From IMG/VR virus record IMGVR_UViG_3300024259_000012: a stretch of 64,000 bases of DNA. One strand, 5' to 3'. Positions 3,342 through 62,815 of the stretch are shown piece by piece; the first letter of the stretch is position 1; every line of letters begins with the position of its first letter. The translations under genes and the position numbers were made by a program. Source of the DNA: a virus. The notes under the pieces are model-generated. The model was not told where the DNA came from. It did not search any database and saw nothing but the letters and a program-made list of their open reading frames with translations.

Positions 3342-3858
3342 TGAAAATTACTCCATGTAATTTTAGCAGGGAAACGTTGTGGTCTACACACACATCTTCA
3401 ACCCTACCGTTTAAATATAAATACAAATCTACGTCGTTCAACACGTTGGTATACAAGTCTTCCGAATCCAACATGATATGTTTTATTAACCCCGTGGCCA
3501 ATAGGCTGTCCAAATTTAATACACCCTTCAAGGTCTCAATCTTGGGCACGAACCCAACACCATCAGGCAGTGCATCACATATCACTTTTACTTCGGTCAC
3601 GTCCTCAACATTGGATACTGCGAAATATTCAATGTTGTCATGCTTGGCCATTTCAGTCAAAGTTTCGTTCAATGGAATTGTGGGAACGGGTGGTTTGGTT
3701 CTACCCTTTGGATAGTCCAAAAATACAGGGTGCCCGCACTTCAAAAATTTACGCAACTCCGCCATATCCTTGACATGCGCCATGTTGATACGAACCACCA
3801 CATCTTCCAACTTTTGAAATTGTGGTAGTCCTAACAAGTGATTAGATATTAGTATCAT
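3331..3858 (-). CDS. Pyruvate kinase/HpcH-type barrel-like protein
   Basis: VRINMAH and VPKIETLKGVLNLDSLL resemble PK/HpcH barrel motifs. Confidence 0.55.
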   Translation of the reverse strand: MILISNHLLGLPQFQKLEDVVVRINMAHVKDMAELRKFLKCGHPVFLDYPKGRTKPPVPTIPLNETLTEMAKHDNIEYFAVSNVEDVTEVKVICDALPDGVGFVPKIETLKGVLNLDSLLATGLIKHIMLDSEDLYTNVLNDVDLYLYLNGRVEDVCVDHNVSLLKLHGVIFNDS

Positions 3859-4195
3859 TTAATGCCTCCCGTATTTTCGTAGCCGAAATAGCTTCAATTT
3901 CTGCAGGCGGCTCATGTTCTATAATACCATACCCAACATCTCTACCATAATTAACCGATTCAATCGCCGGAATTACTGTCAACGATACAAGGTCAGCTTC
4001 AATTTCAGCTTCATATCGTTTTTGCAAATTCCCATACACCTCTCATGATGTGTAAATGTTTTTCTCACCATCGGGTTCCAAGTCCATAATAGCAATTGCT
4101 ACAAACTTACCCTCGTTCAACATCTTTGTAACCATTCACGCATGTCCATCATGGAACGGTTGAAATCTACCAATATACAATGACCACTTTTTCAT
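3842..4195 (-). CDS. Cytidylyltransferase-like (HxGH) protein, 117 aa with 2 in-frame TGA
   Basis: MKKWSLYIGRFQPFHDGHA*MVTK...YTS*EVYG...ISATKIRE; TGA at 4136-4138 and 4043-4045; TAATG coupling to upstream gene. Confidence 0.8.
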
Positions 4196-4986
4196 TATTC
4201 AACGTCTCCTTTGTATTCGCCCTTTAAAAATTCTATAAATGTGTCCACTTGAACAAACAACTGATTGTGTATTTCTGCGGACATCTCTTCATTTTCATCT
4301 TGGATATCTTCAAGTGACCTACCGGATTCTTCAGCCAATTTTCTGTCGGGTCGGGTTATCATATCCCGTGACCCTGCCCAATGATGATATATTTTATCCT
4401 CATACAATCCAAAATACAATGGATGGTAATTTACAACATTGCTCCGCTGTACTGGATAGTAATTAAATTTATCATTGTCCTTTAACCATTGCACAACACC
4501 ACCGAGCCAGTTACCTTGCGCACTTGTCATTTTTCTGCTCATTGGATAATCAATACCCTCGTTCAAATATTCTGCGGGGAAGCACCAAAAGGCACAGTGT
4601 GGAATCTTATGGTTTTGGTCCCACTCGTGGTTTGGCTCTTCCAGTCCAACAAATGGATACTCTTTCAACTTTCCAAGTGCCCACTCATCTATATCCTCTA
4701 CCGGAAATGCATCAGAATCAAACACCATAATGGTGTCGCCATCTTCCATGGCTTCCTTTACAATCGGAATCAATAATTTGAATGCGTCGCTTTGATGTGA
4801 AACTTCACCAACCTTGCCTTGTAAACATACGTCAAATTTGAAGCTGTTTCGCTCATACTCTCCCTCAGACATATTACCCAACCGAGTGTATGTTCTATAA
4901 TCTTGTTTGATATGTCGGGCGAAAGCACGGGTCTGAATATCAATCCAATGTTCAGATGCCCAATGTACTGTTAAAATATGAATCAT
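4195..4986 (-). CDS. Putative glycosyltransferase (GT-A-like)
   Basis: FDSDAFP DxD motif; glyco-island context. Confidence 0.5.
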   Translation of the reverse strand: MIHILTVHWASEHWIDIQTRAFARHIKQDYRTYTRLGNMSEGEYERNSFKFDVCLQGKVGEVSHQSDAFKLLIPIVKEAMEDGDTIMVFDSDAFPVEDIDEWALGKLKEYPFVGLEEPNHEWDQNHKIPHCAFWCFPAEYLNEGIDYPMSRKMTSAQGNWLGGVVQWLKDNDKFNYYPVQRSNVVNYHPLYFGLYEDKIYHHWAGSRDMITRPDRKLAEESGRSLEDIQDENEEMSAEIHNQLFVQVDTFIEFLKGEYKGDVE

Positions 4987-4994
4987 AATTTTCC

Positions 4995-5912
4995 TTACTG
5001 TATTGGCATGTCATTGAAACCGGACTTGCTCTTATCCAATTTTGATTGGTCTGCATCCACAAGCCTAAATCTTGCTTGAACCTCTGTATTTTGCCGAACA
5101 TACTCTTCCTCAAATCGCTCAAAATTGGCGATGTCAAATTTGGTGTTCGGTATGTATTCGGGATTCTTAAAGTATGCCCGCAATGCTTCCGTTTCAGTCT
5201 CCTGAAAAAATTCAAATTTTATTGCTTCTGCCAAGCCGCTCCTTTGCAACTGTGAATATATTTCATCATGTGGACTATGCAACACATCCGATACTGTCAT
5301 GTGTTCATACACGCCCGCTATCTTATTCACGTTAGCAGAACTTGAAAAGAAAAATGCGTCGTATAATCTCAATCGTTCAGCCTGAAATGCCTGTAGCCAC
5401 TTTTTAGTGTGGCAGTCGCAGGTTGTGTCTGTCCAATCACGGCTTTGAAATTCAGGTGCTCTAACACCATCAACCCAACCGTGCGGTTTGGTGTGTCTGA
5501 AATACACATATTGGTTATCAAATTTTTCAAAATTCAGGGGAACAAAAAACACATGGTCAAATCTATATACCATAACCCAATCATACTCAAATCCGTGTTC
5601 TTTCTCATACTCAGTTTTCAAATTTACAGACATTGCCGTTGAATACCAACGACTCGCTATTGCGTTGTCTCTAATTGTAGATTGCCCGAAATTTATCTGT
5701 GGCTCTACAATATAGTCTTTTGGATTGTATAAGTCAAGTAGTATTTTCTCATGGTCAACACTCCAACTGTGAATGAATACATCCACATCATTGTGCTCAA
5801 ATATATTTTTGTTGTGGAAGTAGTGCCCTAATCGTGGGTCAATGTCCTTACCCAACCCCATTCCGAAATTGGATGCCCCGACGATTCCTGGCAAGCATAG
5901 TGCGATTCTCAT
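4995..5912 (-). CDS. Hypothetical glycosylation-island protein (GT-like)
   Basis: MRIALCLPG...DVFIHSW...YDWVMVYRFD pattern typical of proteins in polysaccharide loci. Confidence 0.5.
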   Translation of the reverse strand: MRIALCLPGIVGASNFGMGLGKDIDPRLGHYFHNKNIFEHNDVDVFIHSWSVDHEKILLDLYNPKDYIVEPQINFGQSTIRDNAIASRWYSTAMSVNLKTEYEKEHGFEYDWVMVYRFDHVFFVPLNFEKFDNQYVYFRHTKPHGWVDGVRAPEFQSRDWTDTTCDCHTKKWLQAFQAERLRLYDAFFFSSSANVNKIAGVYEHMTVSDVLHSPHDEIYSQLQRSGLAEAIKFEFFQETETEALRAYFKNPEYIPNTKFDIANFERFEEEYVRQNTEVQARFRLVDADQSKLDKSKSGFNDMPIQ

Positions 5913-6985
5913 TATATCAATTCCTTTAGGTCATGTGAATTTCTAACCATGTTCACCGCTGTGGCTGTTGGGAATGAATTTGTTGGCGAGTAGTCGTTCA
6001 CCAATACCCTCTCACAATGCATCAGGTCAAATATAATTTGATGATAACGAATGTCCAATCTATCCAATTGCTTCAAGGTCACCTCTTTGAATGAACTCTT
6101 CCTGCTTGTGGTAATTATGACCCTCACTGTCCCACTATCATACATTTCATTGATGATATCCACATTTTCCTGTATAGCTCCGGTGGTGCCCCAAATTGGT
6201 TCAAACATCTCACTTGAACTGTTTACAAGCACACCATCCAAGTCAATGAATATCGTCTTGTAGCGTTCTTTGTATTTGTTCCAATCTGCAAGGGTGCCCC
6301 AATCTTCATAGTTGGTAACCTTAGAAGTTTTAAACAGTTTCCCATCAAGCACTTGCTCAAAAATAACGTGCGATATAAAAATTTCAGGGTCGGTGGACTG
6401 TGCGGGTCTACTGAATGATTGTGTAGCCTTCAGAGCCTTGAAGGTTTCCACGAACTGTTCTGCGCTACTGAAGCTATATCCACCACAACAAAACTTGTCG
6501 CTGATTATACGCTTCTCTACAATATTTGTGACGTTCTCCAAGTGGTCAACGGTTACATAGCTTTTGTTCTTGGCTATGACCTCTTCCATGTCATACAATG
6601 AATAAACCGATACCATGTTTGGTTCAATGGGTCCGGTAACAAAGTAGTCATCACAATCCTTGATGTAAATTTCACCTTCAATATTAGCCTTCTGAATTGT
6701 TATTGCTACCGTCTCGCTCTGTGAAGATGTTGGGGTGTCAAGACCAATCAATTCAAATGGTAGACCAAACTTTTCAAATGAGTCATATATTGCGGTTTGT
6801 AATCCATATTTTACAACATCATATCGCATGGCAGTCATCACAATCCTGTCAAAATTAGACAAGTCAATTCCAGACATACCTTCAACAATCATCAGTTCAC
6901 CATTTGGGTGAGTCAGTGACCATTTAGGTCGCATATTAGGATATCTTGTGCTTGCACCGGCGGCGGGTAATATTAACGTAAACAT
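5912..6985 (-). CDS. Sugar-phosphate nucleotidyltransferase fused to a HAD-family domain
   Basis: LPAAGASTRY...PKW N-terminus, DWGT, then FIDLDGVL HAD motif I. Confidence 0.8.
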   Translation of the reverse strand: MFTLILPAAGASTRYPNMRPKWSLTHPNGELMIVEGMSGIDLSNFDRIVMTAMRYDVVKYGLQTAIYDSFEKFGLPFELIGLDTPTSSQSETVAITIQKANIEGEIYIKDCDDYFVTGPIEPNMVSVYSLYDMEEVIAKNKSYVTVDHLENVTNIVEKRIISDKFCCGGYSFSSAEQFVETFKALKATQSFSRPAQSTDPEIFISHVIFEQVLDGKLFKTSKVTNYEDWGTLADWNKYKERYKTIFIDLDGVLVNSSSEMFEPIWGTTGAIQENVDIINEMYDSGTVRVIITTSRKSSFKEVTLKQLDRLDIRYHQIIFDLMHCERVLVNDYSPTNSFPTATAVNMVRNSHDLKELI

Positions 6986-7788
6986 AGTAAATTTATCTCC
7001 TTTAATAACATATCAATTATAACCTTGTCTGTTGCATACGGCACGATTCTCATCAAATTCAAAATCTGAAATGGAACGTAGTATTTTTTGTAATACTCCT
7101 CATCAGAAAACGTGGCCGTGAATTGCCTGTCTATGTATGTAAAAACCTGTTGCAGTCGTACTCTATGCTCCATGTTCCCCAATAGATACAATGACCAAAA
7201 ATAATGCGTGTCCTGCCTGACCTTAACAATGTCTTGCAATGGGCTGTCCAAGAAGGTATCCAAAAAATCTATTAATGCAACCTCATTATTATAAAACAGC
7301 ATATTTGAGAATGTCAAGTCTCCATGGCAATATCCCATTGGAATATCAATGGTGTCATCAAGCTCATAAAATAGTCAATCCAAATGGCTCATGACAATTC
7401 CATGCGCTTTGAAAATATCAGTCTTCACCGACTCAAACTTGTCAACCACAACCTTGCGACTAACCGACCCAACCGATTCAATGTTGGAACTAACAAATGC
7501 ACAAAGTCTTCCAATGAAAGCATCCAACTGGTCTTTTGTTGCTACTATGAAAAATTGGTCAAATGACTGATATGGTAATAATTCCATTTCAAATGAAAAT
7601 ATACCATCATCGGTAATATCAAAATCATAAACTTCAGGACAGCCGAAATACTCACTCTGAAACCGCTCCTGTTTTATTCATTGGTTTTTCAACCGATTTG
7701 AATATTTGGGCGAACCCGACCGTTTTACCAAATGGTCATTTACTATCTCAAATGTACAGCCGGAATGACTGAGTGCATCAAATTTCAA
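6973..7788 (-). CDS. Aminoglycoside/choline-kinase-like phosphotransferase, 271 aa with 2 in-frame TGA
   Basis: Joins track ORFs 7375..7587 and 6973..7338 plus upstream frame from TTG at 7788; TGA at 7678-7680 and 7375-7377; HGDLTFSN and LIDF motifs. Confidence 0.8.
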
Positions 7789-13463: not shown

Positions 13464-14108
13464 TTATTCCTTTATTTCTATAAATTGACACCTAAGATGT
13501 TCAATTATTTCTTGCTTTCTACGCTTATCCCGTTCCACTTGATTTTGGTGAAAGGGTTCGTAGTATTCCAATACTATATTTTTCTCTTTGCTATAACCAT
13601 CAACCCAATATCCCAACTCTTTAATATGAAACTCACCACCATTTTCGGCGTGCTGTAAGTCTGTTATTCCAAGCTCTATTGCCATTGACTCAAGTATTGG
13701 AATTGCCTTGGGATTGTAGTTTGGAAATATTTGGCCTTCTCTTTTTTCAATCCTCGCTATGGCACTTATTCGCTGTCTGCGTTTGGACTCATTTAAGTAT
13801 TCAGTGCCGTTGTTCCGTCTGGTATCTCATATCTTTGCAACGCTATCCGGATTATTCATTGGATTTCATTTTAGCATTCGCTCCCTCTTCTTCTGGCGAG
13901 TCTCGTCGCTTTCTGTAAACCCAAATTTACTATGTGCATCTCCAAACTTACCATACATTGGATGTTTGGTTTTATCTTCTAATAGCTTCCTTCGCCCACA
14001 ACTTTTACATCGCAATCTATTCATTTTAATAGCCCGATTCATTATATACTTGGAGCCGAATTCTCTATCGGCTCCACAGTCAATGCATTGCAATTTATAT
14101 ATGTCCAC
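13464..14108 (-). CDS. Free-standing homing-endonuclease-like protein (Zn ribbon, NUMOD3-like, DUF559/Vsr-like nuclease), 2 in-frame TGA
   Basis: Joins track ORFs 13866..14144 and 13464..13685; TGA at 13866-13868 and 13827-13829; HAENGGEFHI...YWVDGY...EYYEPFH; probable GTG start at 14108 after AGGAG. Confidence 0.75.
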
Positions 14109-14155
14109 TTTACTTCTCCTGTTAGATTCATATATAAATAGCACATAATTAAATT

Positions 14156-15514
14156 TTACACCTTTTTAAGTTTGGGTAAAACTTTCTTTTGCGGCACACC
14201 TTTTAACTTTGGAAGCTTTAGGTCAGGTATTGCGCCTTTCTTTTTCAACTTGGGTAGTGCCAGTGGAGCCTCGTGCGTAAACTCTGGGAGATGCTTGTCC
14301 AAAATAGCCTCAAAAGCTTTAGTCATTGCATCCAATGAAAACCGGCTCTTGGTTATATTGGCGAACGTCTTGAGATTTTTATTATATTTGCCATAGTTCT
14401 TATGTATGTCTTTCAACACATTTTTAGCAAATCCATAGTTCACAGTATACCATTGCGCCCCATCAACAACCAATCCTTTTTGAAGGCTGTCCTTTGGAAC
14501 GTCTGTCATTGCTCCTGGTAATAGCGTGACAAATTTTGAATTTAGGAAATCCACATGCCCACTCCAATTTGGAGCTACAATTGGTTTTTCACTAAAGATT
14601 GCTTCTGCCAATGGACGACCATATCCTTCACCGTGTGTGAATGAAATATGAGCCTTTACCTTTGGTTGGTTATACAGGTCATTCATTTCTTCATCCGTGA
14701 AGTCTCCATGTATCAAGTAAACATTTGGTAGGGTTGTAGCTTCTACCGTGTTTTTGATTTGCTCAATTTTTGTCAACAAATCTTCACGGTCTAAAATGGA
14801 GAACCCTGCGCCGCTTGTTTTCATCAACAATGCCGGTGCCTTGGTTTGATTCTTGAACGTTTCCAAGAATGTCTTAACCATCATGCCGGTGTCCTTTCGG
14901 TCACGACCCATTCCACCTTGCAACCAATGACCCACGTATAAAAATACAAATGACTCTTTTATTGCAGACAATTCCTTTTTCAACGCCACGTCATGCTTGA
15001 CAACCTTCTTATAAATGTTGGTGTCTGCGCCTTCAAATAGAACTTCCATTGGCTTATTCAATTTATGCTCACTCAATATTTTGTCGGTGTTATTCTTATC
15101 ACGCTCTTGAATTACAATAGACTCAAACATATTCTTACCGAACTTGGACGGGACGATATTCAGATTCATTCGGTTGAGTCCTGCTATCCAATCTGCGGGG
15201 CATAGGGTTGTTTCCAGCCCAGCCGTTATACCTATGTTATATGTTCCCATTGGTCTAAATTCGTTTGGAACCGACATTTGAATAAATACATCGGGCAGTC
15301 TTTCAATCACACCATCCAAAACCAAGCTGTCAATTATCTGCTTGTCGGTTTCCGGATTTAATGCATCTCGGGCGGTTGTGCCTCAAGGCATTGGCAAGAT
15401 TTTAATATCAAATTTGTCCATATCAAATAGAGACCTTGCGATATCACGCATGTGGTTTCCATATCCGGAGCGGGTTTCAATTGGACCCATAAGTGCTACA
15501 AATGTTCGCTTCAT
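14156..15514 (-). CDS. GT4-type glycosyltransferase, 1 in-frame TGA
   Basis: Start MKRTFVALMGPIETRSGYG at 15514; PMP*GTT TGA at 15383-15385; GEGYGRPLAEA motif. Confidence 0.85.
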
Positions 15515-20052: not shown

Positions 20053-20487
20053 TTAAAGCCCTTTCAAATATTTCTTTTTCTGTTTGTCATCAAGACCATA
20101 TAAACCAATTATACGCTCTATTTCAGTTTTGTCCATCAATTCTATATATGCTCGGACATCCGACGTGCCCAATTCAAAGTATTTGCACAACAACTCAATC
20201 AATTCCGAACTGTAGTTTACCGATTTCTTACCCTTTATATATTTGAGCCATATCCGGCTTTTTGGTAATACATCAATATAAAATGCATACATCAATTTAG
20301 GTGAAACGTCCAAGGTCTGCGCATAATTTACAACACCTGCCCAATCCGGATTCATAGATAGAAATCTATGTACCATATAACTTGACCATGTTTTTTTATC
20401 ACCATCTGTCAAGGTGTCCCAATAGTTGGGGTCTTGCGTTTGCGTTATAGCTGTTATGTGATTGAATAACGTTTTTATTTTAGTCAT
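20053..20487 (-). CDS. Putative clamp loader small subunit (gp62-like)
   Basis: YMVHRFLSMNP...LPK...WLKYIK pattern; near the clamp loader ATPase. Confidence 0.6.
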   Translation of the reverse strand: MTKIKTLFNHITAITQTQDPNYWDTLTDGDKKTWSSYMVHRFLSMNPDWAGVVNYAQTLDVSPKLMYAFYIDVLPKSRIWLKYIKGKKSVNYSSELIELLCKYFELGTSDVRAYIELMDKTEIERIIGLYGLDDKQKKKYLKGL

Positions 20488-21151
20488 TATTCATCTCCCA
20501 CGCTTTAAGTTCAATAAACTTACACCCATATGTTTTCATAATTCACCGTTTTCTATTTTTGTCATATATACTATTACGTTGTTTTTTATGAAATGGTTCA
20601 TAATATTCTATAACAACATTATTTTCTTTATCATAACCATCAACAAAATACCCACCCAAAGTAACTTCTCCACCATTCATTGCATGTTGAAAGGTATAGC
20701 CATGTTTTTTGCCAAATTCATCAATAATTTTGCACGCTTTTGGGTTAAAACTTGGAACAATGGGAGCACCCATCTTTTCAACCTGTTTAGCTCATGCAAG
20801 TTGATGTTTTTTTCGTGTTTCATCACTTACTTTTCTACCAACCATCACATTTAATCAATTCTTATTTGTTGTATTTCTCTTGATTGACATACAACTTCTA
20901 CACAAACTGTGTTTTCTATCGGCACGAAGCAATGAATCTTTTAATTTATATGTAATAGTATTGTGACAAGATGGACATTCTCTTACCAATTTCTCAATGT
21001 GATATTTCACTGTAAATTTACCATCTTCTCTAATAACAGTTTTCCTGGAACAACTTCTACATAATTCAGAATTTGACCACTGCTCGGTAATAATGACATG
21101 GGCGCAGTTAGGACACACCCTCTCCCATTTCCCGTCGTTTCTTCTCTTCAT
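20480..21151 (-). CDS. Free-standing homing-endonuclease-like protein, 3 in-frame TGA
   Basis: Joins track ORFs 20855..21229 and 20543..20773; TGA at 20855, 20792, 20543; two CxxC...CxxC ribbons; HAMNGGE...YFVDGYD...EYYEPFH; ends TAA 20480. Confidence 0.75.
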
Positions 21152-21272
21152 AATACTTCTCCATTTTTTTACGATTGAGTTCTTTCTTATTGCGATGGTA
21201 GTATTCAAGAGCTTTCTTACGATTAGCATTTTTTAATTCTTCTTCTGTTTTATATTTCTTTTTACGACCCAT
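21108..21272 (-). CDS. Small basic helical protein (MGRKKKYKTEEE...)
   Basis: SD GAGGAG upstream; similar to 31888..32070. Confidence 0.6.
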   Translation of the reverse strand: MGRKKKYKTEEELKNANRKKALEYYHRNKKELNRKKMEKYYEEKKRREMGEGVS

Positions 21273-34356: not shown

Positions 34357-34377
34357 ATTTTTCTCCATCATGTAATT

Positions 34378-41683: not shown

Positions 41684-42162
41684 TAGTCAGTTACCTCTAT
41701 ATCATCTACTGATACCCATTCAGAACCAGGCTTCTCTTCTTTAAGAATGCCGGTTGAAGTTTCTGAATCATCCGAGCCTGTGATTTGATAATCAGGAAAC
41801 GGGCTATCGGCAACAACAAAAGTGGAACCTGTGATTTGGATTTCCGTTCCATCAATTAGTGCATCAGATTCTACAAGACCCGCTTCACCCAATTCTATGG
41901 ATTCTTCAAGCGTAGTTCCAATTCCAACAAAAAGGTTTTCACCAAGAATTGGTATTGGTGGTGTGGCAGGAATCGGTTCCACACGGTCACCCTTCAAATT
42001 TGTAATAAATTCATTTATCGCTTGAACCGGCCATTCAAATTCAACCAATACTTCTCGCAATAACATTTGATGTCCGAAATTTTTTGGGTCGGGCTTTCCA
42101 TCAGATACTTTAAACGCTCACTCTGTTAATATGTTCTCCAACATTCCTTCATAATCAGTCAT
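41683..42162 (-). CDS. Hypothetical acidic protein, 1 in-frame TGA
   Basis: MTDYEGMLENILTE*AFKVSDGKPDP; AGGAG SD; TGA at 42118-42120. Confidence 0.7.
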
Positions 42163-49279: not shown

Positions 49280-52086
49280 TATGCTACTCCCAAGTCTCCT
49301 GTTGTTTTTATTAATTTACTCATCAATTTGTCATTTTGGTCAAGCAACTTTTTATTGAAATCAACCATCTGTGTTAATAATTTATTTGTCTCGGTCATGT
49401 CCGTTGAAGATGACCCCACGTTTGCTTCTTGCTTCAATTGGTTCGGCTGGCCAACAAATTCACCCTTGTGAACCTCCGCCATGCCTGTTTGTTTTATAGT
49501 GCCTCCACCTGCTAATTTAGGAGCGTCCATTGGCGTTGGGTTTGACCCACCGAAAAAATCTCCAATTAAATTTCCAACAGAAGCTATCTTATCAATAACC
49601 CATTGAATTGGGGCGAATGCGGTTATGAACATATCTGCAATCCAACCACCCACAGATTTTATAGTGTCCCACATGCTTGTTACGCCGTCTGCAATTCAAG
49701 AAAATGCCTGCCCAGCTACAACTTTAACTTTATCAAAATTTTTCCATAATAGATACAATCCAGCGACCAGTGCAACAACCCCAAGAACTATTGCTGGGAT
49801 ACCTGTGGCATTTAATGCAATTGCAAGTGCTCCTGCGGCGGTTGTTGCCAACCACGTAACTGCAGTCCATGCGCCCATTGCTATGGTTCCAATGCCGGTT
49901 GCTATGCTCAAAGCCCCTTGGGCCAATGTTCTTGCTCCTGTTGCTACGGTGGATGCTACCATTGCGGCAATATTTTTGTAAGTTTCTGCGCTTGATAATG
50001 TAATCCAAAACACACCAAGTTTGTCGGCCATGGCTGATGCTCTACTAACAACTATTTTTGACCACATGGTTGCTATGTATGTTCCAAGCCTACCTATATT
50101 TTTTACAAGTGCCGAACCCTTTAAATTTTCCCACATCAGACTGGCTTTTGATGCTATACTATCCTTTATAGTGGCCAGTGCTTTTGACCACATTTCTTTT
50201 ATGTATATTCCAAGTCGCTTGGTATTTCTCACAAGTGCAGACCCTTTTAGATTCTCCCACATCGTACTTATTTTTGATGCAGTCCCATCCTTTTGTGTCA
50301 CGAAAATCTTTGACCACATTTGTTTTACATACGCTATAATGGATTTGTATGTTGATATAATTGAGTTTTTAAACCCGACCATGCCCGCATAAGTAGCTTC
50401 AAGAATCGCTGGTAAAAATACTGCTGTCAATATACCACCAACCCACAATAGCGTTTTACCGATGATGCTCAAATGTTCAATAATTCAATTAATAGGTACA
50501 AACATCAAACTCAATGTCTTTGTAATTGCTTGATATGCCGAATCTACCGCTTTCAACACATTTGCTTTTGATTCTTGCACTGCAATATCTTGTACAGTCA
50601 TCTCACTAATTTTCTGTTGGTTCATAATCATTTTGGACAATTCATCCACACCAACACCAATTGAATCCGCAAGTGCTCTACGTTGGATTACGTTCATCGC
50701 TTCAAATTCTGATTGACTACCAACCAATGACAAGACCTCTTGCTGAAGTCCAACCATGTCACCCGAGAATGCCAATCCACGAGCCTTGTCTAAATTTATA
50801 TTTCTACCCAATAATACAGATGCTTCCATTTGCTTTTCAATGGAGCCTTCAAAGTCTAATAATGAATCTGCTATTTTGGCTGTGGTTCCCAAGCTCAATC
50901 CAAGCTTGCGTGCTTGCACTGCGGCAACCCCTAAATTTTTTCCTCCATCCTTAGCAAAGGATGCAAAGAACTCCGTGTTCTCAGCCATGTCTTCCAAAAC
51001 AGCCGCTGGAGCCACGCCTTCTGCTCTTGCAAGCTCTCCGACCATCCCAATGGTACTTTGTGCCGCTTGTGCTGTTAAGCCTGATACTGCCATCATTTGT
51101 GACATTAATTTTGCAGTAGAGTCTGCGGATATTCCATATTGAAATGATAGTGCTTTCATGCCTATCAATGTTTCATTTGTTATCGTATCAAGAGTTCCGA
51201 ACTCACCTAATAATGCCTTGGCTTCATCTCCTGCAATCAATAGACCAGGACCCAATTTTGCAACTTGTGCATATGACAATCCCGATTCGTTTGCAAAATC
51301 TGCCATTTTTTTAGCCGATGCAACGATTCCCACTCCAATAGCCAAGATACCAACCTTCATAGCAGTTAGTGGATTTTGAACGATGCTCATTGCAGTTGCT
51401 TTTACATCATTTCATTTATCATTCATAGCCTTAACTTTTGCATTCATCTCATTTGTTTTATCATTGGTCAATGATTGAAAATCAGCGATTTCCTTAAAAG
51501 CTTTAACTTGGTCAATATAAAAATCAACTTGGTCAATCAAAGCCTCACCAAGTTCCGTATTTGACCCTGTATAATTTTTTTGTATAAGTTGACGCTTTTC
51601 TAATAATGCATTTAATTGATTTGAGGTATCTACCGCACTAAACTGTTCCGTTCCGATTTGCTCTTCTGCTCTAACCATAGAGATTGCCAAATCCCGTTGG
51701 TCTGTTGCCAAATCATTAACCAGCTCATGAGTTTTAGTTTTTCGCTCAGCGGTATCAACAACACGTCGGGACAAGTCTGCATAATGATATTCATTCTTTA
51801 AAATTTCTTTTTGTTTATCTGACAGTGACCCAAATTCACGAGCCAACTTTCCACGCATACTTGCTTGTTTACTAACTTGCTTTTCAACTTGTCTATTTTG
51901 GGACAATTCCTCACGCTTCAGTTTCAATTGTCGCTCGTATGTGGCAAGCTGAACCTCCTGCTTGGCAGTGATTCCAGCTTCAAGCTTTGACTTTTTCTTC
52001 AATTCATCAATTTGCGCTCTAATCTCTACAGTTTGCGCTCTTAATATTTTGAGGTCAGCGGAAGTTTTTTCATTTACTTTAGCCAC
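49279..52086 (-). CDS. Tape measure protein, 935 aa with 3 in-frame TGA
   Basis: Joins four in-frame track ORFs via TGA at 51412, 50485, 49696; coiled-coil N-terminus, LLDFEGSIEKQMEASVLLGRNINLDKAR, hydrophobic W-periodic repeats. Confidence 0.85.
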
Positions 52087-52840: not shown

Positions 52841-53591
52841 AAAAAAATCGTACCGTCATTGGGACGGCAACCTCCTCTTCGTATGCACATAATGAACATT
52901 CGAAGTTATAGCTCATGTCTATATCCGGAGTGATTGATTTTAAATATTCTCGGAGTGCTAATGAATCCACGGCAAGAAAAGTTGTATCTACAAATTTGTT
53001 GATAACTGCCCGCTCGGTCTTACCGTCAACCTCAATCAATACCTTCTTCAAGCGAGTTGTGACTTCCTTCTCTGCCTGTCCCTTAGAAAGCTTTTTCAAC
53101 GCTTTCAATTCAGCATCAATATCTCGCTCATCCGATTGAGTGAGCAATTTGAATTTGATTGGTATTTTTGAATTTGGGAGTGTCCACGAATACTCATTTA
53201 CTCCCTTTTCAAGACCATCAAAATTGATTTTCTTTTCTTCCAATGTGGTTAAATCCACAGTGTCCTTATTATGCTCTGCACATGCAGGGCAGTCTAACTC
53301 AAAGTCATAAGCTTTGCCATATCCTAATACACGGGCCGCTACCATCAATGCATTTTTGTCACCAATCAGCATTGAATCCAAATTAATGGATTTGTCAACA
53401 ACAAGAGACTTTAATAACTTGTCGATAACCACCCCCCTCCGTATTAAATTTTGTGAGGTTAATATATCTTCGTGAGATGCATTCATATACATCATTTCTA
53501 CTTCACCCGATGCCAATGGATTGTCTTCTGGGTAGAAGAATCCTTTGGATGGAAGTGAGATTATCTCGCTTGGGTATTTAGTTTCTGCCAT
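52821..53591 (-). CDS. Baseplate hub/tail assembly chaperone (T4 gp26-like)
   Basis: LPSKG.FYP, EDILT, CPAC, CSLC, ends RFFWP; between tube and tape measure genes. Confidence 0.75.
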   Translation of the reverse strand: MAETKYPSEIISLPSKGFFYPEDNPLASGEVEMMYMNASHEDILTSQNLIRRGVVIDKLLKSLVVDKSINLDSMLIGDKNALMVAARVLGYGKAYDFELDCPACAEHNKDTVDLTTLEEKKINFDGLEKGVNEYSWTLPNSKIPIKFKLLTQSDERDIDAELKALKKLSKGQAEKEVTTRLKKVLIEVDGKTERAVINKFVDTTFLAVDSLALREYLKSITPDIDMSYNFECSLCAYEEEVAVPMTVRFFWPSTRV

Positions 53592-54282
53592 GGTATAACT
53601 CCTTTACCGTTTGTTTTAATTTATTGTAATCAAACGAATCCTGCTCAACCCTCAGAAACGTACACTGTAGGTGTTCAGTTATTTCGTTTTGTCTCATTGC
53701 ATCTTTTTCTTTTTGATAGCTGTGATACGCTTCATCTCATTCTATTACCAAATTTAATTCTGGTACATAAAAATCAACCCAATATCCCAACTGTTTAATA
53801 TAAAACTCGCCGCCATTTTCGGCATGTTGTCCATTTAATGATAATTCTGAATTGAGCCTGTCAAAGGCAATGCACGATGTTTCATTATAGTTCGGAAAAT
53901 TTTGCCCATATTTTCGCTGAATGTTATTGATTTGCGCTAATCTCAATTTGCGCTTGTGCTCATCTGATTTAGGGATTCCTTTGAATCTGGCACTTGTTTC
54001 CTGCTTGTCCTTGGCCGACATTTTCCTACCGAATCCTGGGTGGTCTTTTCCAAATTTTCCATATAATCCGCTCTTTTCACCGACATTTGTACCGATACTA
54101 TTTTTACTCATAAGAGCTAAAGTTTCTTTTGTGTGGGTTTTACCATACATCGGATTCCGGTTACCAGATATTGCGCACGGTCTACATGCCGTATTTTTTG
54201 CTATGGCACGAGCCAACAAATATTTATTAGAATACGATAGCTGAATATTACAATTTGGACAGTTCCGAGAAAACTTACTCAT
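53578..54282 (-). CDS. Free-standing homing-endonuclease-like protein, 1 in-frame TGA
   Basis: CPNC..CRPC, NPMYGKTHTKET (NUMOD3-like), HAENGGEF, YWVDFY, VIE*DEAYH TGA at 53737. Confidence 0.78.
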
Positions 54283-57141: not shown

Positions 57142-57180
57142 GAGCTCTCTGCTATATGTAATGAATTTTTACCCTTGTCA

Positions 57181-57615
57181 TCAATCAACCCTCTTTGCAC
57201 ATTCGGGTCCAATACCTGAAATGATTGATTCTGGCACGGTTAATTTCCGCCCACATCTACCGCATGTACCTGAATGAAATATTGCTATCAGGGATGACAA
57301 CCGCTGAGTAATGAGTTTGCTAAAAATGTATTGAAATACTTTTTCTGACTGTGCGGATGCCGCTATTTTGCTCTTTTTACCATGATAGTAATCTTTTGAA
57401 TTGAAAATTGTTCCCAAATATTGATATGAATCGGTGCCGGACATTACTGACACAAAATGAACAGTCGCATCCTTTTCCTTGGGTTTGCGGACTTTGAATG
57501 TAAACCTGTTTCTGGATTCAGTATTTTTAACGGTGAAGGTTGAATTTCCCGCTAAAATATACTTTAGTGCATCGGTTTGGGTTAGTGCGGTCATATTGTT
57601 GGTCTCCTCTTCCAT
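57181..57615 (-). CDS. Hypothetical protein with DUF6011-like C-terminal zinc finger
   Basis: CGRCGRKLTVPESIISGIGPECA; followed by tandem TGA TGA. Confidence 0.7.
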   Translation of the reverse strand: MEEETNNMTALTQTDALKYILAGNSTFTVKNTESRNRFTFKVRKPKEKDATVHFVSVMSGTDSYQYLGTIFNSKDYYHGKKSKIAASAQSEKVFQYIFSKLITQRLSSLIAIFHSGTCGRCGRKLTVPESIISGIGPECAKRVD

Positions 57616-57709: not shown

Positions 57710-60058
57710 TTATGCTGAGAAAGTAGCTCCTGTTGGCATGACTGTGAAATCAAGCACTATGAATTCCGCTGTGCGGGTAGGCTGAATCCAAATCTGACCA
57801 ATAAGCTTGTTACGGTCAATTACCTCTGGGGTATTGTTACTCTCGTCCATGATAACTCGGAAAGCGGTCAAACCACTATTCTGTTGCACTGACTCAAGAT
57901 ATGGATTAACCATATTCAAGAAGCGTGTACGTGTCACAGAATCGTTGCCTTCAAATACCAAGTAACGACTTGAAGATGCAATGTATTTCTTCAACTTAAT
58001 TAAAAGTCTACGAACATTGATTCTATCAAGAGCCGATGGCAATGATTGAAGTGTCTTCTGACCCCAAGCTACTGTTCCTTGACCTGGGAAGGTTGCGATT
58101 GGATTTACACGGTTCTCGTATAAGTCGTCACGTTCTTCATGTGTCAAGCGTGTCTTAGGTTCAAGCACGGTTGTAAGACCTCCACGATTCAAGCCTGCGG
58201 GTGCAAACCATTCGTGAGAAACCTTATCGGTGTATGCAATAACACCACCCATTACAACTGAAGGTGGAACCCAGAGTGGCAATGCTGTGTTTCTATCCAC
58301 AATCTTAACCCATGGATAGTATGTTCCTGCATAGTTAGTGTCCAATGATGCGATATTATTTGTTGCGGTTGAAACACTATCGTCAATATCCGATGAATCC
58401 ATTGGATAGAATGTGTCTCCACGAGCCTCAATTTTCGTAATAGCATGATTGGTTACCGAGCTATGGAATTTGTGAAGTACCCCAGGAATCAACATCAAAT
58501 TGATATCAAATTCGTCTGGATTACTTACGGCATTAATAGCACGTTTGTATGCCACTGAACCACTTGAAAGTGAGTTTGCACAATCAAATCCTTGAGTGTT
58601 AGTTGTTGCGATATTCGCACCAGTCAATTTTGGATTTGCGGGATTGTCTCCGTCAAAACCACCTTGAAGTGGTACTGAGAATTTACGCTGTTTGATATGC
58701 GAGTTAGCTAATGTGACTGCCTGTGAAGCGGATGCATATGGTGTACCCAAGGTACTTGCATCAGCCGTTCCGGTCATATCTTCTAAACTCATTGATACGT
58801 TACTACCGGTTCCTGCCGACGTTGGAATTGCTCCCAAATATTGCCTGTTATCAGCATTGGTAAAATCATAGCCAAAGTAGTAGTTTGAATTGAACGAACT
58901 ATTATTGTCTGTCTGTGATGTCACAAATGATGCTGAAGGTACAGCGGTTGTCGTTGGGGCAGTGTTGCTAATTGCCGCAAATCCCATTGGTGAAACGATT
59001 TTAGGAATACTTGCGTCCGCAATGTCGCCAAAATCACTAACATAAATATGATTTGACAGGTTAGGCCAATCACCATTATACGTGAGGTTTCCGTTGGAAT
59101 CTGTTGTTACATATCTGTCACCGATGACACGTGCAAAATAATTTACACTTGTTGGGTCAAAGGTAAGACTATCCCACGATTCAACAATTACTTCATCTGA
59201 TTGCTTCCATGAGTTAGGTTTTAACTTACGAACCTGCAATGTAAATGAACCATAATCTGTACCAGTTATTGTTCCAGCGGCCTTTACATCAGAAATAACA
59301 ACATTATATTTGTCATTGATGTCAGTACCATGTGAGCGAGTTTTAACCTTGAACAGGTTATACCTTGCACCATTGATTAACTGTGATTGAATGTATGGGG
59401 TATATGCGTTTGAATAATCTATTCCGGAGAAATCCAATGATGCGGATGCGATAGACGCACTTGCATATTGGTCCAGTCCAGTTGAAGATTGAAATGTTTT
59501 ATAGTTCTTATACAGGTAGACTTCTACTGTATTCAATCCTGATTTTTGAACTTGTGGACTATCACTAAATACGTTGGTAATATAGTTTGCACTACCTGTA
59601 TTGAATGAAATTGTGTATGCCCGTGATGTTGCACCGGCTACGGTTAGTGCGGCGGATGCCCAGCCACCTGTAATGCTACTACCTGTCAATGTTGCGGTTC
59701 CGTCGCTTCCACCTCGTGATGGTGCAAGAACTGCGGCTGTTTCCAAACCACGAGAGCTTGAAAGTTGAAGTGCCATATAGTCACTTGAGTAACCACCAAT
59801 TCCAAGAACCCTAACTACTGTTACTGTTCCTGCGCTTTGCAAATATTGCTCAACTGCATATGGTGTATAAAAGCGTGAATCCGTACTCCCGAACATATCT
59901 TCAAATTCAGGTCAAGACCTGATAATGGTTGGAACAAACGCTGGACCTTTAATGGTCGGCCCGATGATTGCGGCTCCAATCTCTGAAATACCTTGGGGAA
60001 GGAAAGACGCATCAGTTTCAGATGTAAAGACACCTGGTGAGACGATTCGTTCTGCCAT
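57710..60058 (-). CDS. Contractile tail sheath protein (gp18-like), 1 in-frame TGA
   Basis: MAERIVSPGVFTSETD...KGPAFVPTIIRS*PEFEDMFG (TGA at 59912-59914); YYPWV, WFAPAGLNRG, WGQKTL, DRINVRRL, PTRTAEFI. Confidence 0.95.
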
Positions 60059-60540: not shown

Positions 60541-61335
60541 TTATTTTATGATTGTTTTTTCTCCAAATGACATAATTGTTTTTGTAGGTGAAAAAACCCT
60601 TTGTGTTGTTATCTGTTCGTTGAATGACTCGGGTAATAAGTACCCTGAAATGGTCAACGAGAATGTAGTTTTATTTATACGCTCGCCGTCGCCCACTTCC
60701 GTGCTATCATCAAAGCTTGAAATTTCTGAGCGGAATTTGAACCGTCCTGGCTCGCCTCAATATGCCCCACTTGAATAATTAATTTTTTCGGTGAGTTTGT
60801 TCATCTGCTCAATGTAGGTCGCCCACATAATGCAATCGTATTCGACGGTCACATATTTTGGGACGGCGACTTTATAAAATTCTCGGGACGCCTGCTCACC
60901 TTGAAGCAATGGAAGTTGGTTGTATCTGTTCTTATCGGAATATCTCTGCTCGAACACGTAATGAAGTTTGGGGTCATTTGCATCCAATGCGTTCATAGAC
61001 ATTGCATCATCGTTAGCTGTGGTTGTGCGCCTGAATGTGATTGCCGGTAAAATTATTTGACGTTTATTGTCTCGAATGTATCCATCAATCTGTGCAGATT
61101 TCCAACGCTCGGGGTTGGAATATAAAACCGGCACCTGAACCATCTCTCCGTTATCAACAACTGAAGGTTTGATGACCTCCGCAAAATAATACATCACAGC
61201 AGAATCTATATCCATCAGTCCGACGGATACGTTATTCGTTGTATCATCTCTGCGTGATACCTGTTCTGCCCGATTAACTACACGACCGGTTGTGTGTCGT
61301 TCGTCTACTGGGAGTGGTTTACTGCGTGATGCCAT
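60541..61335 (-). CDS. Tail completion/sheath stabilizer-like protein (gp15-like), 1 in-frame TGA
   Basis: VPVLYSNPERW, LPAITFRR, EQMNKLTE, GAY*GEPGRFKF (TGA at 60757), GYLLP; TAA at 60541. Confidence 0.75.
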
Positions 61336-61340
61336 TTAGG

Positions 61341-61676
61341 TTAGTCTTTCATCAATTCAGATTTCTTTTTCTTTTCCATTGCCTTGATAAGCTTAGCAAC
61401 GATTTTACCATTAGCGTCATCATATATTTCATGAGACCTACCCACCTGTCCAGTAAACTCTTTTCCACCACGGGCGAATTGAACATTGCCGTCTGGGGTC
61501 TCTAAATAAAACTCGCCAAATCCCATGTGTTTCAATTCTGAGTTTGGTAGGGCACCTTGACTAAATTGTACGAACCCAGTATCGCCGTACCACTTCTTTC
61601 CATATTTATAGTGATGGCCTCCCGATTCCTTCAATATTTCTTCTCTAATCATTTGTCTTAATTCTGATTTTTTCAT
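61341..61676 (-). CDS. MKKSEL-leader protein
   Basis: MKKSELRQMIREEILKE... Confidence 0.65.
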   Translation of the reverse strand: MKKSELRQMIREEILKESGGHHYKYGKKWYGDTGFVQFSQGALPNSELKHMGFGEFYLETPDGNVQFARGGKEFTGQVGRSHEIYDDANGKIVAKLIKAMEKKKKSELMKD

Positions 61677-61691
61677 TATTTTTCTCCACAA

Positions 61692-62330
61692 TTATTTATT
61701 GAAATGTTGGATAGCAAACGCTAAATCAGTTGCTGTTTCCTTCATTCGCTTTGGTGTAGGCTCTACTTTATAATCGGTGTAATTCACGATTATGTCATCC
61801 CTACCAGCTTTAAGCTTAAATTTTTTCATTAATGCACTTACATCTTTTTGAATTTTTTTCTCAAATGCCGCGGTGATTTTGGTTGAATTTTCAATATCGC
61901 CAGTATGTTTCTTATCAAGCTCTTTGAAAATTTTTACCAATACATCAATATAATATTGTTTGTCATTTTCAGATAATACTTGAATTTCTTCCCTAATCAT
62001 CTGCCTTAATTCTGATTTTTTCATTTGTGTCGATTCCTTTTTCATATTGCGCTTTAGGATAACCGTCCATTTCTTTATTACATCTGGTTTATCAAACTGA
62101 CCATCCCTGTAATCATGGTAAACTTGTGCCAACTCACCTGCAAGAAATTCATGAAATCCAAGTTCAGCTCTAAGAGCATTTTTTACTTTATTCCAATCCG
62201 TTACCTTTTTGGTGTTATATTTAGTTTTAGTTTTATCCAAAGTATTAACAATTCAAGTTAATTCTGATTTTGTTAATGGTTTAACTTTGACCTTCTCACT
62301 CAAAATCGTAAGTAATTCTGATTTTTTCAT
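61692..62330 (-). CDS. Protein with N-terminal and internal MKKSEL motifs, 1 in-frame TGA
   Basis: [10 protein letters not shown]...KSELT*IVNTL (TGA at 62253); internal MKKSELRQMIREE at 62024. Confidence 0.65.
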
Positions 62331-62815
62331 TATTTGCTCCTAACGCGCTCTATGTTTAAATTTGATTTTCTTATTCTGTGGCATGTACAGTTGAATGACC
62401 AATTCTTGTCTGGGTCACCTGCCAATAATTGATTTTCATTTATTGCATTGATTTCAAAATATGCTGAGTTCCACTCAAATATATCACCCAAGTTTGGGAC
62501 AATAACCAAGTCAATCAAATTCTGTCGTAATATAAAAAACTGTACATTCTGATTTTCATCGGCTCCGAATTCTTCATTGTTTCAGTCGAAGTCGTCCGCT
62601 TCAATGATACATGCTAATTGTACCCCAGAATTGTAAACTCTACCCTCTATAGATTCGCCGTACATATTCACTTTAGTATCAGTGACTGATATCGTATATC
62701 ATATGGCAGTCTGATTGATGAACCCGTCTCTATTTTTAGTGGGTTCGCCTAACAGTTCACCATTCATTGTTTCAAATAAATTCATGTCTCGGGTTGATAC
62801 AAAGCGTCCTGGCAT
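62330..62815 (-). CDS. Neck/head-closure-like protein (gp14-like), 2 in-frame TGA
   Basis: [10 protein letters not shown]...NMYGES...[16 protein letters not shown]; TGA at 62699 and 62582. Confidence 0.7.

Follow-up and report, generated by a model that had tools for sequence, protein, structure and literature searches.

In-frame UGA codons probably translated as tryptophan in a subset of genes of a marine T4-like phage

The stretch of DNA analysed here (the window; 64,000 nucleotides of IMG/VR record IMGVR_UViG_3300024259_000012) is part of the genome of an uncultured marine T4-like myovirus. The rebuilt genome composite comprises 142,286 nt of a full genome that is probably 165-200 kb long, so that about a quarter is unsampled. 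The phage stretch is present in more than 13 seawater DNA runs, as well as in metatranscriptomes. An earlier, sequence-only reading of the window had called the phage T4-like, and both the virion and the replication modules place it there: we found Pfam families of the gp13, gp19 and baseplate types (Phage_T4_gp13, a weak Phage_T4_gp19, and T4_baseplate), an SSB of the gp32 type, and a PolB that shares about 31% identity with cyanophage gp43, along with the T4-type labels RNA_lig_T4_1, T4_Rnl2_C and HAD_PNKP. As recombinase, the phage has a bacterial-type RecA rather than UvsX. The nearest cultured relative, Microcystis phage Mel-JY01 (PP395634), shares the T4-like gene set and is 48% identical in the sheath and 44% in PolB, over full length, but is too distant to bear on the genetic code.

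Genes on the minus strand of the window contain in-frame sense TGA codons. Homologue alignments or Pfam/PHROG domains cross 27 of these codons in 17 genes (25 sites in 15 genes by homologue alignments, and two more sites in two more genes by Pfam domains), and about ten further sites are supported by ORF structure alone. The earlier count of 35 TGA codons in 21 genes was about right, our recount being some 37-39 sites in some 23 genes. Genes carrying such codons include the following.

3842..4195, minus strand: cytidylyltransferase-like gene, 117 aa; sense TGA at 4138 and 4045
6973..7587, minus strand: APH-type kinase, 204 aa; sense TGA at 7377 joins two code-11 ORFs
13464..14144, minus strand: probable homing-endonuclease-like gene; TGA at 13868 and 13829, from ORF structure only
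14156..15514, minus strand: GT4 glycosyltransferase, 452 aa; sense TGA at 15385
20480..21229, minus strand: homing-endonuclease-like gene; TGA at 20857, 20794 and 20545
30246..32042, minus strand: DEAD/Helicase_C_2 helicase, 598 aa; TGA at 31913 (codon 44), crossed by one homologue alignment
32063..33115, minus strand: 5'-3' exonuclease, 350 aa; sense TGA at 32119 (codon 333)
33265..34371, minus strand: RecA, 368 aa; sense TGA at 34233 (codon 47)
34417..35196, minus strand: gp32-type SSB, 259 aa; sense TGA at 35118 (codon 27)
41270..41683, minus strand: conserved 137-aa protein; sense TGA at 41380
41683..42162, minus strand: 159-aa protein; sense TGA at 42120 (codon 15)
44106..46568, minus strand: 820-aa virion-module protein, several fragments becoming one ORF in code 4; six sense TGA, at 46412, 46262, 45740, 45668, 45581 and 45041
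49279..52086, minus strand: 935-aa protein, four code-11 ORFs in one frame becoming one in code 4 through three TGA (51414, 50487 and 49698)
53578..54282, minus strand: NUMOD3/DUF559 homing endonuclease, 234 aa; sense TGA at 53739
57710..60058, minus strand: tail sheath, 782 aa; sense TGA at 59914 (codon 49)
60541..61335, minus strand: 264-aa protein (the 'gp15-like' protein of the earlier reading); sense TGA at 60759
61692..62330, minus strand: 212-aa protein; TGA at 62255, from ORF structure only
62330..62815, minus strand: 161-aa protein; sense TGA at 62701 and 62584

All the examples named earlier were found in place on the minus strand (sheath, 59914-59912; SSB, 35118-35116; RecA, 34233-34231; gp15-like, 60759-60757; endonuclease, 53739-53737; AT*LRM, 46412; SWG*LED, 45668; MP*GT, 15385), and the code-11 pieces do fuse through TGA only, with no TAA or TAG between them. 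The restored starts are likewise preceded by strong Shine-Dalgarno sequences, as had been claimed, and the alternative code-11 starts by none: AAGGAGA lies upstream of the sheath, 42162 and 4195 starts, GAGGAGA upstream of the SSB start, and AAGGGAG before the code-4 start of the glycosyltransferase. For the 212-aa protein, AGGAG precedes the code-4 start, nothing similar precedes the code-11 start, and coding scores are high both before and after the TGA. With its code-4 start, the helicase lies 21 nt rather than 165 nt from the upstream gene.

Domain matches run across several of the sites. In the cytidylyltransferase-like gene, the Pfam CTP_transf_like match (residues 6-47) crosses the TGA at residue 20; in the kinase, where the coding score is high on both sides of 7377, residue 71 lies inside both the Choline_kinase match (residues 45-108) and the APH match (69-124); and in the homing endonuclease, a DUF559 match (residues 166-227) crosses residue 182. 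The RecA codon is spanned by Pfam RecA (residues 37-287) and that of SSB by a PHROG SSB match (residues 5-242). Homology also continues beyond TGAs near the 3' end, through a conserved 17-aa tail of the exonuclease that includes the motif LDKFAKEHNG, and through a 36-aa tail of the 41270..41683 protein. Homologue alignments cross all six TGAs of the 820-aa protein and reach all three of the 935-aa protein, where 49698 meets only a gap in a single homologue and a weak PHROG endolysin-domain match (residues 780-883) crosses residue 797. The names 'hub-like' and 'tape measure' given in the earlier reading are without family support, and the 820-aa protein matches no Pfam or PHROG family. Among the homing-endonuclease-like genes, relatives of 20480..21229 stay in frame beyond 20857 with a similar repeat motif, while 13464..14144 consists of two code-11 fragments in one frame, has similar copies in a related phage (G001, below), and has TGAs that no homologue alignment crosses. 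Other TGAs listed under code 4, at 7490-7681, 40193-40399, 9918-9996, 21537 and 25639, are off-frame or 5'-extension artefacts and not sense codons.

Are these codons genuine? Independent ENA, Logan and JGI assemblies of other samples, which cover most of the sites, read TGA at every covered site, and a 98.6%-identical variant likewise reads TGA; assembly error is therefore excluded, including the consensus error that had been raised as a concern. Metatranscriptome contigs cross ten sites, RecA and SSB included, with TGA unchanged, which makes RNA editing unlikely. An account of the TGAs as artefact or decay, whether by assembly error, by pseudogene formation in a defective phage or by UGA-to-UGG editing of mRNA, could draw on the bare presence of stops inside genes and nothing else; it must also contend with the recurrence of the stretch in the many seawater DNA runs and with TGA sites that are conserved in relatives or swapped there for TGG. 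It is largely refuted, and its remaining probability is negligible.

Homologue columns and codon exchanges in related phages both support the claim that TGA stands for Trp. In a Codetta-type test of homologue columns, W was the best fit at 11 of the 20 testable TGA columns, against 96 of 129 in a control on TGG columns. Summed BLOSUM62 scores were 101.5 for W, 18.9 for Y and 12.1 for F, and were below zero for every other residue, Gly and Cys included. The earlier description of the sites as Trp-type positions holds for six columns in which 11-22 relatives each have W: RecA (W 22, TGA 3, V 1), SSB (W 21, TGA 1, Y 1), the exonuclease (W in 17 of 17), 41380 (W 18, TGA 3), the glycosyltransferase (W in 13 of 13) and the gp15-like protein (W in 11 of 11, TGA 1). 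W also occupies the column in 3 of 3 relatives at both 42120 and 4138. The description does not extend to every site, since the sheath codon, in a gene for which 80 relatives align over residues 1-780, falls in a Phe column (F 78, W 1, Y 1, TGA 1). About eight further columns are variable and do not indicate the inserted residue. Site 4045 meets E in 3 of 3 relatives; 45668 meets W 9, TGA 3, F 2 and Y 1; 46412 meets W in 5 of 9, the other four columns of the 820-aa protein being variable; and in the 161-aa protein 62584 meets W 4 and F 2, and 62701 meets L 4, I 1 and W 1.

The same columns dispose of glycine (code 25, as in phages of Gracilibacteria and Absconditabacteria), selenocysteine and cysteine as the meaning of TGA. 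Oxygen-poor seawater can harbour Gracilibacteria, and the recoded relatives carry unusual tRNA-Gly genes. However, the anticodons of these tRNAs are UCC and ACC, not UCA; Gly is the top residue at one variable TGA column only and Cys at none; W, Y and F alone among the 20 residues have positive summed scores; and there is no extra structure downstream of TGA such as a SECIS hairpin of selenoprotein genes would give (mean folding energy -9.06 kcal/mol, vs. -9.32 after TGG). This reading is refuted by the homologue columns, in agreement with the poor fit of Gly and Sec noted earlier, and we assign it virtually no probability.

Three related IMG/VR phages (G001, G002 and G003) interchange TGA and TGG with the window. 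Relatives have TGA opposite a window TGG 10, 15 and 12 times, respectively, and TGG opposite a window TGA 10, 6 and 5 times; in the homologue-column test, TGA codons of relatives stand opposite a W of the window 46 times. The ratio of TGA to TGG falls with sheath identity, from 73:444 at 67% or more, to 3:415 at 62-67%, to 0:856 below 62%. The sense-TGA trait is thus inherited and common to at least three related IMG/VR phages, and distant relatives have only TGG. Since relatives below about 67% sheath identity do not interchange the two codons, recoding is confined to a young sub-clade that has close standard-code relatives, as for a recent, clade-limited change.

Within genes, the TGAs are unevenly placed. 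Of 19 genes, 13 have TGA as their first Trp codon (7.4 expected; P=0.006), and the following base is A at 12 of 25 sites, compared with 31% after TGG. An A after a stop codon is a weak termination context, so this bias, the skew towards the 5' end and the failure to find a decoder (below) would suit a UGA that remains a leaky stop, read through at a few percent by host tRNA-Trp, with the TGAs acting as attenuators rather than as a reassigned codon. Yet one ORF has six TGAs and another has three, over which the yield of leaky readthrough would drop multiplicatively; sheath and SSB are needed in large amounts; and relatives exchange TGA and TGG freely, as if the two were synonymous. We regard leaky termination as very improbable.

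TGA nevertheless seems, on indirect evidence, to double as a stop in the same genome, and it is probably still a stop in many small genes. The features concerned include two in the window.

38780..39322, minus strand: 180-aa gene with an apparent end at TGA 38782-38780, overlapping the next start as ATGA
57180..57185, minus strand: tandem TGA TGA at the end of a DUF6011 gene (57181-57615), followed by two more codons and then TAA

The 180-aa gene has no Pfam match, and its orthologues in G001, G002 and G003 have TAA or TAG one codon ahead of the phage TGA position; orthologues of a gene at -66227 similarly end in TAA/TAG within one codon of the phage TGA. The tandem TGA TGA is probably a true stop. 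Thirteen ORFs that finish with TGA share an ATGA with the following start, and the 25 codons at the ends of ORFs are enriched in TGA relative to TGG (odds ratio 2.0, P=1e-4), in an ORF set that includes spurious ORFs. Because of these TGA stops in small genes, the phage seems to use two codes, and the earlier proposal of code 4 for at least part of the cycle is plausible, given that other genes appear to end at TGA.

Recoding is also sparse. In the window, about 12% of Trp codons (about one in eight) are TGA, a share that rises to about 30% within recoded genes, which encode RecA, SSB, the exonuclease, the helicase, several virion proteins, sugar-modification enzymes and homing endonucleases. 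TGA is missing from PolB, RNR and DnaB and from large virion genes (46889-49279 and 55277-55816), and the sugar cluster as a whole is nearly free of it. Recoded genes occur one at a time between unrecoded neighbours on one strand, in no long blocks. In this phage we did not find recoding gathered in late structural and lysis genes while replication genes keep the standard code. The recoded set is not restricted to late or lysis genes, which departs from the published model and counts against the reading favoured below.

Might the host itself use code 4, having no RF2 and reading UGA always as Trp, so that the phage follows without any switch and the terminal TGAs are read into short, harmless tails? 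Each apparent TGA stop does have a TAA or TAG within 0-41 codons after it, neither 142 kb of the phage nor its relatives yielded a suppressor tRNA, RF1 or TrpRS, and many code-4 phages share their host's code (Cook et al., PMC11210395). Such a host would, however, be hard to square with the low share of TGA among Trp codons and its near absence from PolB, RNR, DnaB and the sugar cluster, with sister lineages from the same kind of seawater that use no sense TGA, and with the 13 ATGA stop-start overlaps and the orthologues that end where TGA lies. In addition, we know of no free-living pelagic bacterium in which UGA means Trp. We consider a code-4 host improbable.

We therefore favour, at a probability of roughly 85%, the reading in which this marine T4-like phage translates UGA as Trp in an inherited subset of its genes, probably with a switch in mid-infection. 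Because TGA still seems to terminate many small, early-type genes, UGA probably changes meaning during infection; it would act as a stop early and as Trp later. A TGA near the 5' end would then serve as a gate, leaving the gated genes untranslated until the code switches. The sequence comparisons show the Trp reading in these genes and its inheritance; the change of meaning and the gating are inferred.

None of tRNA-Trp(UCA), TrpRS and RF1, the decoding factors for which the sequence-only reading suggested looking, turned up in 142 kb of phage genome. ARAGORN (with and without intron mode) and scans for T-arms and UCA hairpins did not detect a single tRNA in the 142,286-nt composite, and Rfam at E<=1 gave no tRNA in the window plus seven loci (L133, L129, L126, L181, L182, L185 and L189). 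None of the genes called in the phage itself carries a Pfam label for RF1, RF2 or TrpRS, none of the three was found in G001-G003 (no PF00472 or PF00579), and a 140-kb relative yielded no suppressor tRNA, RF1 or TrpRS. The tRNAs of the recoded relatives are of the Gly type only.

Under the favoured switch to Trp, the decoder might be a suppressor tRNA encoded in the remaining, unsampled quarter, or host tRNA-Trp(CCA) might read UGA once host RF2 is disabled. We tentatively extend the second option to a clade without a tRNA of its own, in which an early product would disable host RF2, host tRNA-Trp(CCA) would read UGA, and a TGA at the first Trp codon would time middle and late genes; this more specific scheme is possible but, at present, rather unlikely. 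It would place the gate TGA at a gene's first Trp codon, inside roughly the first 60 codons, with small early genes still ending at TGA.

Phages that read TGA as Trp are already known, as the sequence-only reading had stated (bioRxiv 10.1101/2021.08.26.457843; PMC11210395). As in the code-4 gut phages (Agate, Jade, Sapphire and some crAss-like phages; Borges et al.; Yutin et al., PMC7886860; Cook et al.), in-frame TGA here lies at Trp positions in genes that are otherwise intact, TAA or TAG closes the recoded genes, the trait is clade-limited with close standard-code relatives, and part of the genome looks standard. Unlike them, this phage is a distant T4-like myovirus of pelagic seawater with sparse recoding, which affects recombination, replication and homing-endonuclease genes and shows no concentration in those for lysis and structure; its TGAs are skewed to the first Trp codon, and its 142 kb yielded no suppressor tRNA, RF1 or TrpRS. 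Among code-4 phages, a suppressor tRNA was found in only 35% (Borges, bioRxiv 10.1101/2021.08.26.457843) or 15% (Cook, PMC11210395), and RF1 and TrpRS as helpers of the code change only in two Jade phages. In published surveys, 65-85% of code-4 phages lack a detectable suppressor tRNA, and our results bear on how such phages decode their genes; a recoded sub-clade beside standard-code sisters, with 142 kb devoid of any tRNA gene, makes a useful test case.

Our results also add an abundant pelagic T4-like lineage to the gut phages in which TGA-to-Trp recoding is known. With only about one Trp codon in eight being TGA, the code may go unnoticed. Under standard annotation, essential genes are broken up in this phage and in its relatives, so such phages are under-annotated; as anticipated, public calls fragment virion genes, giving a 728-aa sheath and two large virion proteins in 3-4 pieces each, and they give a RecA of 307 aa (368 aa in code 4).

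Phages with block codes described with Mgcod (bioRxiv 10.1101/2022.06.29.495998) resemble ours in combining sense-TGA and TGA-stop genes in one genome, but differ in having long code blocks where ours has single recoded genes. Finally, in the E. coli strain 'Ochre' (PMC11903333), with RF2 weakened, about 80% of the residues inserted at UGA are Trp, delivered by native tRNA-Trp(CCA), and the same paper cites Hirsh and Gold (1971) for the reading of UGA by this tRNA. Trp at UGA without a UCA tRNA would fit the lack of tRNA genes here, although 'Ochre' is an engineered bacterium, and a phage factor acting on RF2 is, for the marine phage, a hypothesis only.

Fragments that are separate ORFs under code 11, in which TGA is a stop, fuse in frame via TGA without intervening TAA or TAG when TGA is read as sense (code 4), and full-length genes are restored as the sequence-only reading had proposed; every example it had named was found in place. 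Strong Shine-Dalgarno motifs precede the restored starts, as it had also claimed, and none precedes the code-11 alternatives. In addition, Pfam and PHROG domain matches bridge the TGA codons.

Restored genes, start signals and bridging domains
49279–52086: 935-aa ORF, four ORFs fused through 3 TGA
44106–46568: 820-aa ORF, 6 TGA read as sense
AAGGAGA Shine-Dalgarno: before the sheath, 42162 and 4195 starts
GAGGAGA Shine-Dalgarno: before the SSB start
AGGAG Shine-Dalgarno: before the 62330 start
RecA domain, residues 37–287: spans TGA codon 47
SSB match, residues 5–242: spans TGA codon 27
DUF559, residues 166–227: spans TGA codon 182
APH and choline-kinase matches: span TGA codon 71
CTP_transf_like: spans TGA codon 20

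Homologues or domains back 27 sense TGA sites in 17 genes, and ORF structure alone points to about 10 more, which is close to the 35 sites in 21 genes counted earlier. TGAs at 7490–7681, 40193–40399, 9918–9996, 21537 and 25639 were rejected as sense codons, because they belong to false 5′ extensions or off-frame ORFs; a codon-usage coding score told frames apart weakly. Three homing-endonuclease-like genes (13464–14144, 20480–21229 and 53578–54282) carry in-frame TGA, so these mobile genes are written in the phage's own code. Among the three, only 53578–54282 has Pfam support (NUMOD3, DUF559).

We next consider which amino acid is placed at TGA. TGA codons of the code-4 ORFs were translated as X, and tblastn then aligned the products with some 120 IMG/VR loci, which had been retrieved with four anchors (sheath and RecA among them), and with three whole contigs of relatives.

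Residues of relatives aligned to window TGA codons (minus strand)
34233, RecA: W 22, TGA 3, V 1
35118, SSB: W 21, TGA 1, Y 1
32119, exonuclease: W 17/17
41380, 137-aa protein: W 18, TGA 3
15385, GT4: W 13/13
60759, gp15-like: W 11/11
45668, 820-aa protein: W 9, TGA 3, F 2, Y 1
4138, cytidylyltransferase-like: W 3/3
42120, 159-aa protein: W 3/3
59914, sheath: F 78, W 1, Y 1

The TGA columns are enriched in Trp: by BLOSUM62 column scoring W was top at 11 of 20 sites, with summed scores over the TGA columns of 101.5 for W, 18.9 for Y and 12.1 for F, and the same scoring on window TGG columns, as a control, gave W at 96 of 129. About eight TGA sites lie in variable regions of two large virion proteins. 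Since the column scores favour W, Gly, Cys and Sec are ill-suited to TGA, which bears out the earlier judgement on Gly and Sec. No extra structure was found 3′ of TGA (mean folding energy −9.06 kcal/mol after TGA vs. −9.32 after TGG). In the exonuclease, a 17-residue tail past codon 333 is conserved in the relatives' sequence and must therefore be translated. Thus, the main interpretation, that TGA encodes Trp, holds.

Most sites are covered by contigs of independent assemblies, and every covered site is TGA, a 98.6%-identical variant included, so assembly error is excluded. Contigs of three metatranscriptome runs span ten sites with zero changes (34233, 35118, 41380, 42120, 45581, 45668, 45740 and further sites, on the same contigs), so the major RNA form keeps UGA; since this RNA evidence consists of contigs and not reads, rare variants would escape notice, and DNA may be present in RNA libraries. 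Differences in depth among RNA contigs were not taken as evidence of expression. High-depth contigs (63x, 33x) from two RNA runs match the window solely at 41534–42020, with a joint that skips 41554–41993 and flanks that differ from the window. They are probably from a related, highly represented variant of the 41683–42162 gene.

The lineage is that of a pelagic T4-like myovirus. The window has a GC content of 39.5%, with nearly all genes on the minus strand, and modules were assigned from Pfam labels of public gene calls and our own scans. These comprise a replication and recombination module (PolB, class II RNR, DnaB-type helicase, clamp-loader-like AAA protein, RecA, 5′-3′ exonuclease, DEAD helicase and gp32-type SSB), an RNA-repair set (PNKP inside the window, Rnl1 and Rnl2 upstream of it) and a T4-type tail module (sheath, gp19, T4 baseplate protein, gp13). 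Among cultured phages, Microcystis phage Mel-JY01 is the nearest (sheath 48%, PolB 44% identity); PolB is about 31% identical to gp43 of T4-like cyanophages. Megablast against GenBank phages found no near-identical phage. Many seawater assemblies in ENA, Logan and JGI contain the same phage (98.6–100% identity), which was detected in more than 13 DNA runs and several metatranscriptomes. A scan of genome contigs for the host gave no usable assignment, only a 4.6-kb contig of an 'uncultured Actinomycetes' MAG (56% identity) and an unrelated archaeal match.

A walk along the phage's own genome yielded a composite from about −77.5 kb to +64.8 kb relative to the window start, with the head-gene side expected beyond it. 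A metagenome pattern scan lengthened the sequence by just 1.7 kb, and a scan begun at the start of the 140-kb relative found no recoded contigs reaching further.

Several other regions of the genome were observed. A large sugar-modification cluster, almost without sense TGA, occupies 623–12523 and runs on for about 19 kb upstream (L123 and L126, loci of the walk); it encodes an aminotransferase, a radical SAM/SPASM protein, a sulfotransferase, epimerases, glycosyltransferases, APS kinase and UDP-glucose dehydrogenase. Besides PolB at 22790–25264, a 433-aa protein at 42184–43485 has a family A DNA polymerase domain (PF00476, E = 1.4e-9). The 186-aa protein at 40641–41201 has no Pfam match at E ≤ 0.01 and sits next to genes for an R2K ATP-grasp protein, a PRA-PH/MazG-like protein and PNKP. 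At 55933–56692, in the interval from the sheath to the tube genes, public calls place two overlapping ORFs in different frames; frameshifting or a miscall may account for this:

56342–56692: DUF7717, public gene call
55933–56391: 152-aa ORF, public gene call

The recoding is common to three related contigs, G001 (140 kb), G002 (39 kb) and G003 (72 kb). A relative's TGA is aligned with window TGG 10, 15 and 12 times, respectively, window TGA with a relative's TGG 10, 6 and 5 times, and TGA with TGA 4, 7 and 5 times. Over all loci, TGA:TGG at aligned Trp positions drops with distance, from 73:444 at ≥67% sheath identity to 3:415 at 62–67% and 0:856 at <62%. The reassignment is thus recent and limited to one sub-clade within a large group of marine phages that use the standard code. 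In the relatives, one or two insertions interrupt RNR, and PolB of G001 is split as well, with an ORF resembling the window's homing-endonuclease-like genes between its parts; both genes are uninterrupted in the window (RNR, 25603–27603; PolB, 22790–25264).

Interrupted RNR/PolB regions
G001: 76548–80755 and 83420–86990
G003: 39915–42920

TGA probably has a dual use, as a stop in small early-type genes and as Trp elsewhere. In the composite, 52 code-11 ORFs end in TGA without in-frame fusion to another ORF, a set that includes several confirmed sense sites (e.g. 60759, 53739, 41380, 32119), and 13 of the 52 overlap the next start as ATGA. For two genes, recoded relatives have orthologues whose TAA or TAG stop lies at most one codon away from the TGA:

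38782: TGA end of a 180-aa gene
about −66227: gene with a TGA end

Within the final 25 codons of ORFs, TGA is overrepresented relative to TGG (odds ratio 2.0, P = 1e-4), in an ORF set that is noisy. An ATGA four-mer census and a control on TAA/TAG ORF ends were given no weight, because of off-frame ORFs and alignments sliding over gene junctions; that control, confounded by off-frame ORFs, showed no consistent amino-acid column at real TAA/TAG gene ends.

Sense TGA is also skewed towards the 5′ ends of genes. Of 19 curated genes, 13 have TGA as their first Trp codon vs. 7.4 expected with labels shuffled within genes (P = 0.006), a test that hinges on correct start calls; so do 11 of 16 homologue-supported genes (P = 0.011), and the first 60 codons hold 13 TGA vs. 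8 TGG. This skew is suggestive of a gate that aborts translation early while UGA is still a stop.

To account for the decoding, the sequence-only reading had proposed a search for tRNA-Trp(UCA), TrpRS or RF1. ARAGORN, with and without intron mode, detected no tRNA gene in the window or the composite, and Rfam detected none at E ≤ 1 in the window and seven walk loci, a part of the composite; 234 ARAGORN matches at lowered thresholds were meaningless and were discarded. A scan for UCA hairpins returned five isolated hairpins, none with a tRNA body, and a T-arm scan returned two motifs, of which the convincing one lies within a tRNA-like RNA:

L133 (walk locus) 6322–6530, minus strand, about 33.7 kb before the window start: tRNA-like RNA of about 200 nt

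This RNA has its own promoter (TTGACA-17-TATTAA), a terminator and the sole good T-arm in 142 kb (GTGAG TTCGAGC CTCAC). It contains no UCA loop, its acceptor stem has just 5 bp, it folds weakly (z = −2), Rfam gave no match and the relatives have no copy; it was rejected as the suppressor. G001 and G003 have only glycine-type tRNAs, in a small cluster between RNR and PolB, where the window instead has a 102-aa ORF (25292–25600):

L138 (G003 locus) 1500–1655 and L139 (G001 locus) 1333–1574: small tRNA cluster

The cluster consists of tRNA-Gly(UCC), an unusual tRNA-Gly(ACC) with A34, and a Gly-identity tRNA with a 6-nt anticodon loop (UUUCCA). Because these tRNAs carry the glycine identity set and have UCC or ACC as anticodon, they were rejected as UGA decoders and cannot explain Trp at UGA. 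No RF1, RF2 or TrpRS was seen in the relatives or among the Pfam labels given to genes of the phage itself.

Two routes to Trp at UGA were weighed. CheckV gives the 140-kb relative a completeness of 71%, so roughly a quarter of the genome lies outside the sampled sequence and a phage suppressor could still exist. Suppressors were detected in only 35% (Borges et al., bioRxiv 10.1101/2021.08.26.457843) or 15% (Cook et al., PMC11210395) of code-4 phages. Alternatively, a phage factor might disable host RF2 and thereby yield a code with Trp at UGA. In E. coli with weakened UGA recognition by RF2, native tRNA-Trp(CCA) puts Trp at about 80% of UGA codons (PMC11903333); this engineered strain inserts Trp at UGA without a UCA tRNA, and such a route would need no phage tRNA. 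By this analogy we regard an RF2-disabling phage factor as a tentative and rather unlikely explanation, at perhaps one chance in four.

TGA-to-Trp recoding in phages is of an already published kind, and the recoding in the gut phages of Borges et al. (bioRxiv 10.1101/2021.08.26.457843) is likewise limited to clades, matching the pattern here. Particular to this case are the zero tRNA genes in the 142 kb examined, the sparse and 5′-skewed recoding, the presence of recombination genes and homing endonucleases among the recoded genes, and the lineage itself, a pelagic T4-like myovirus.
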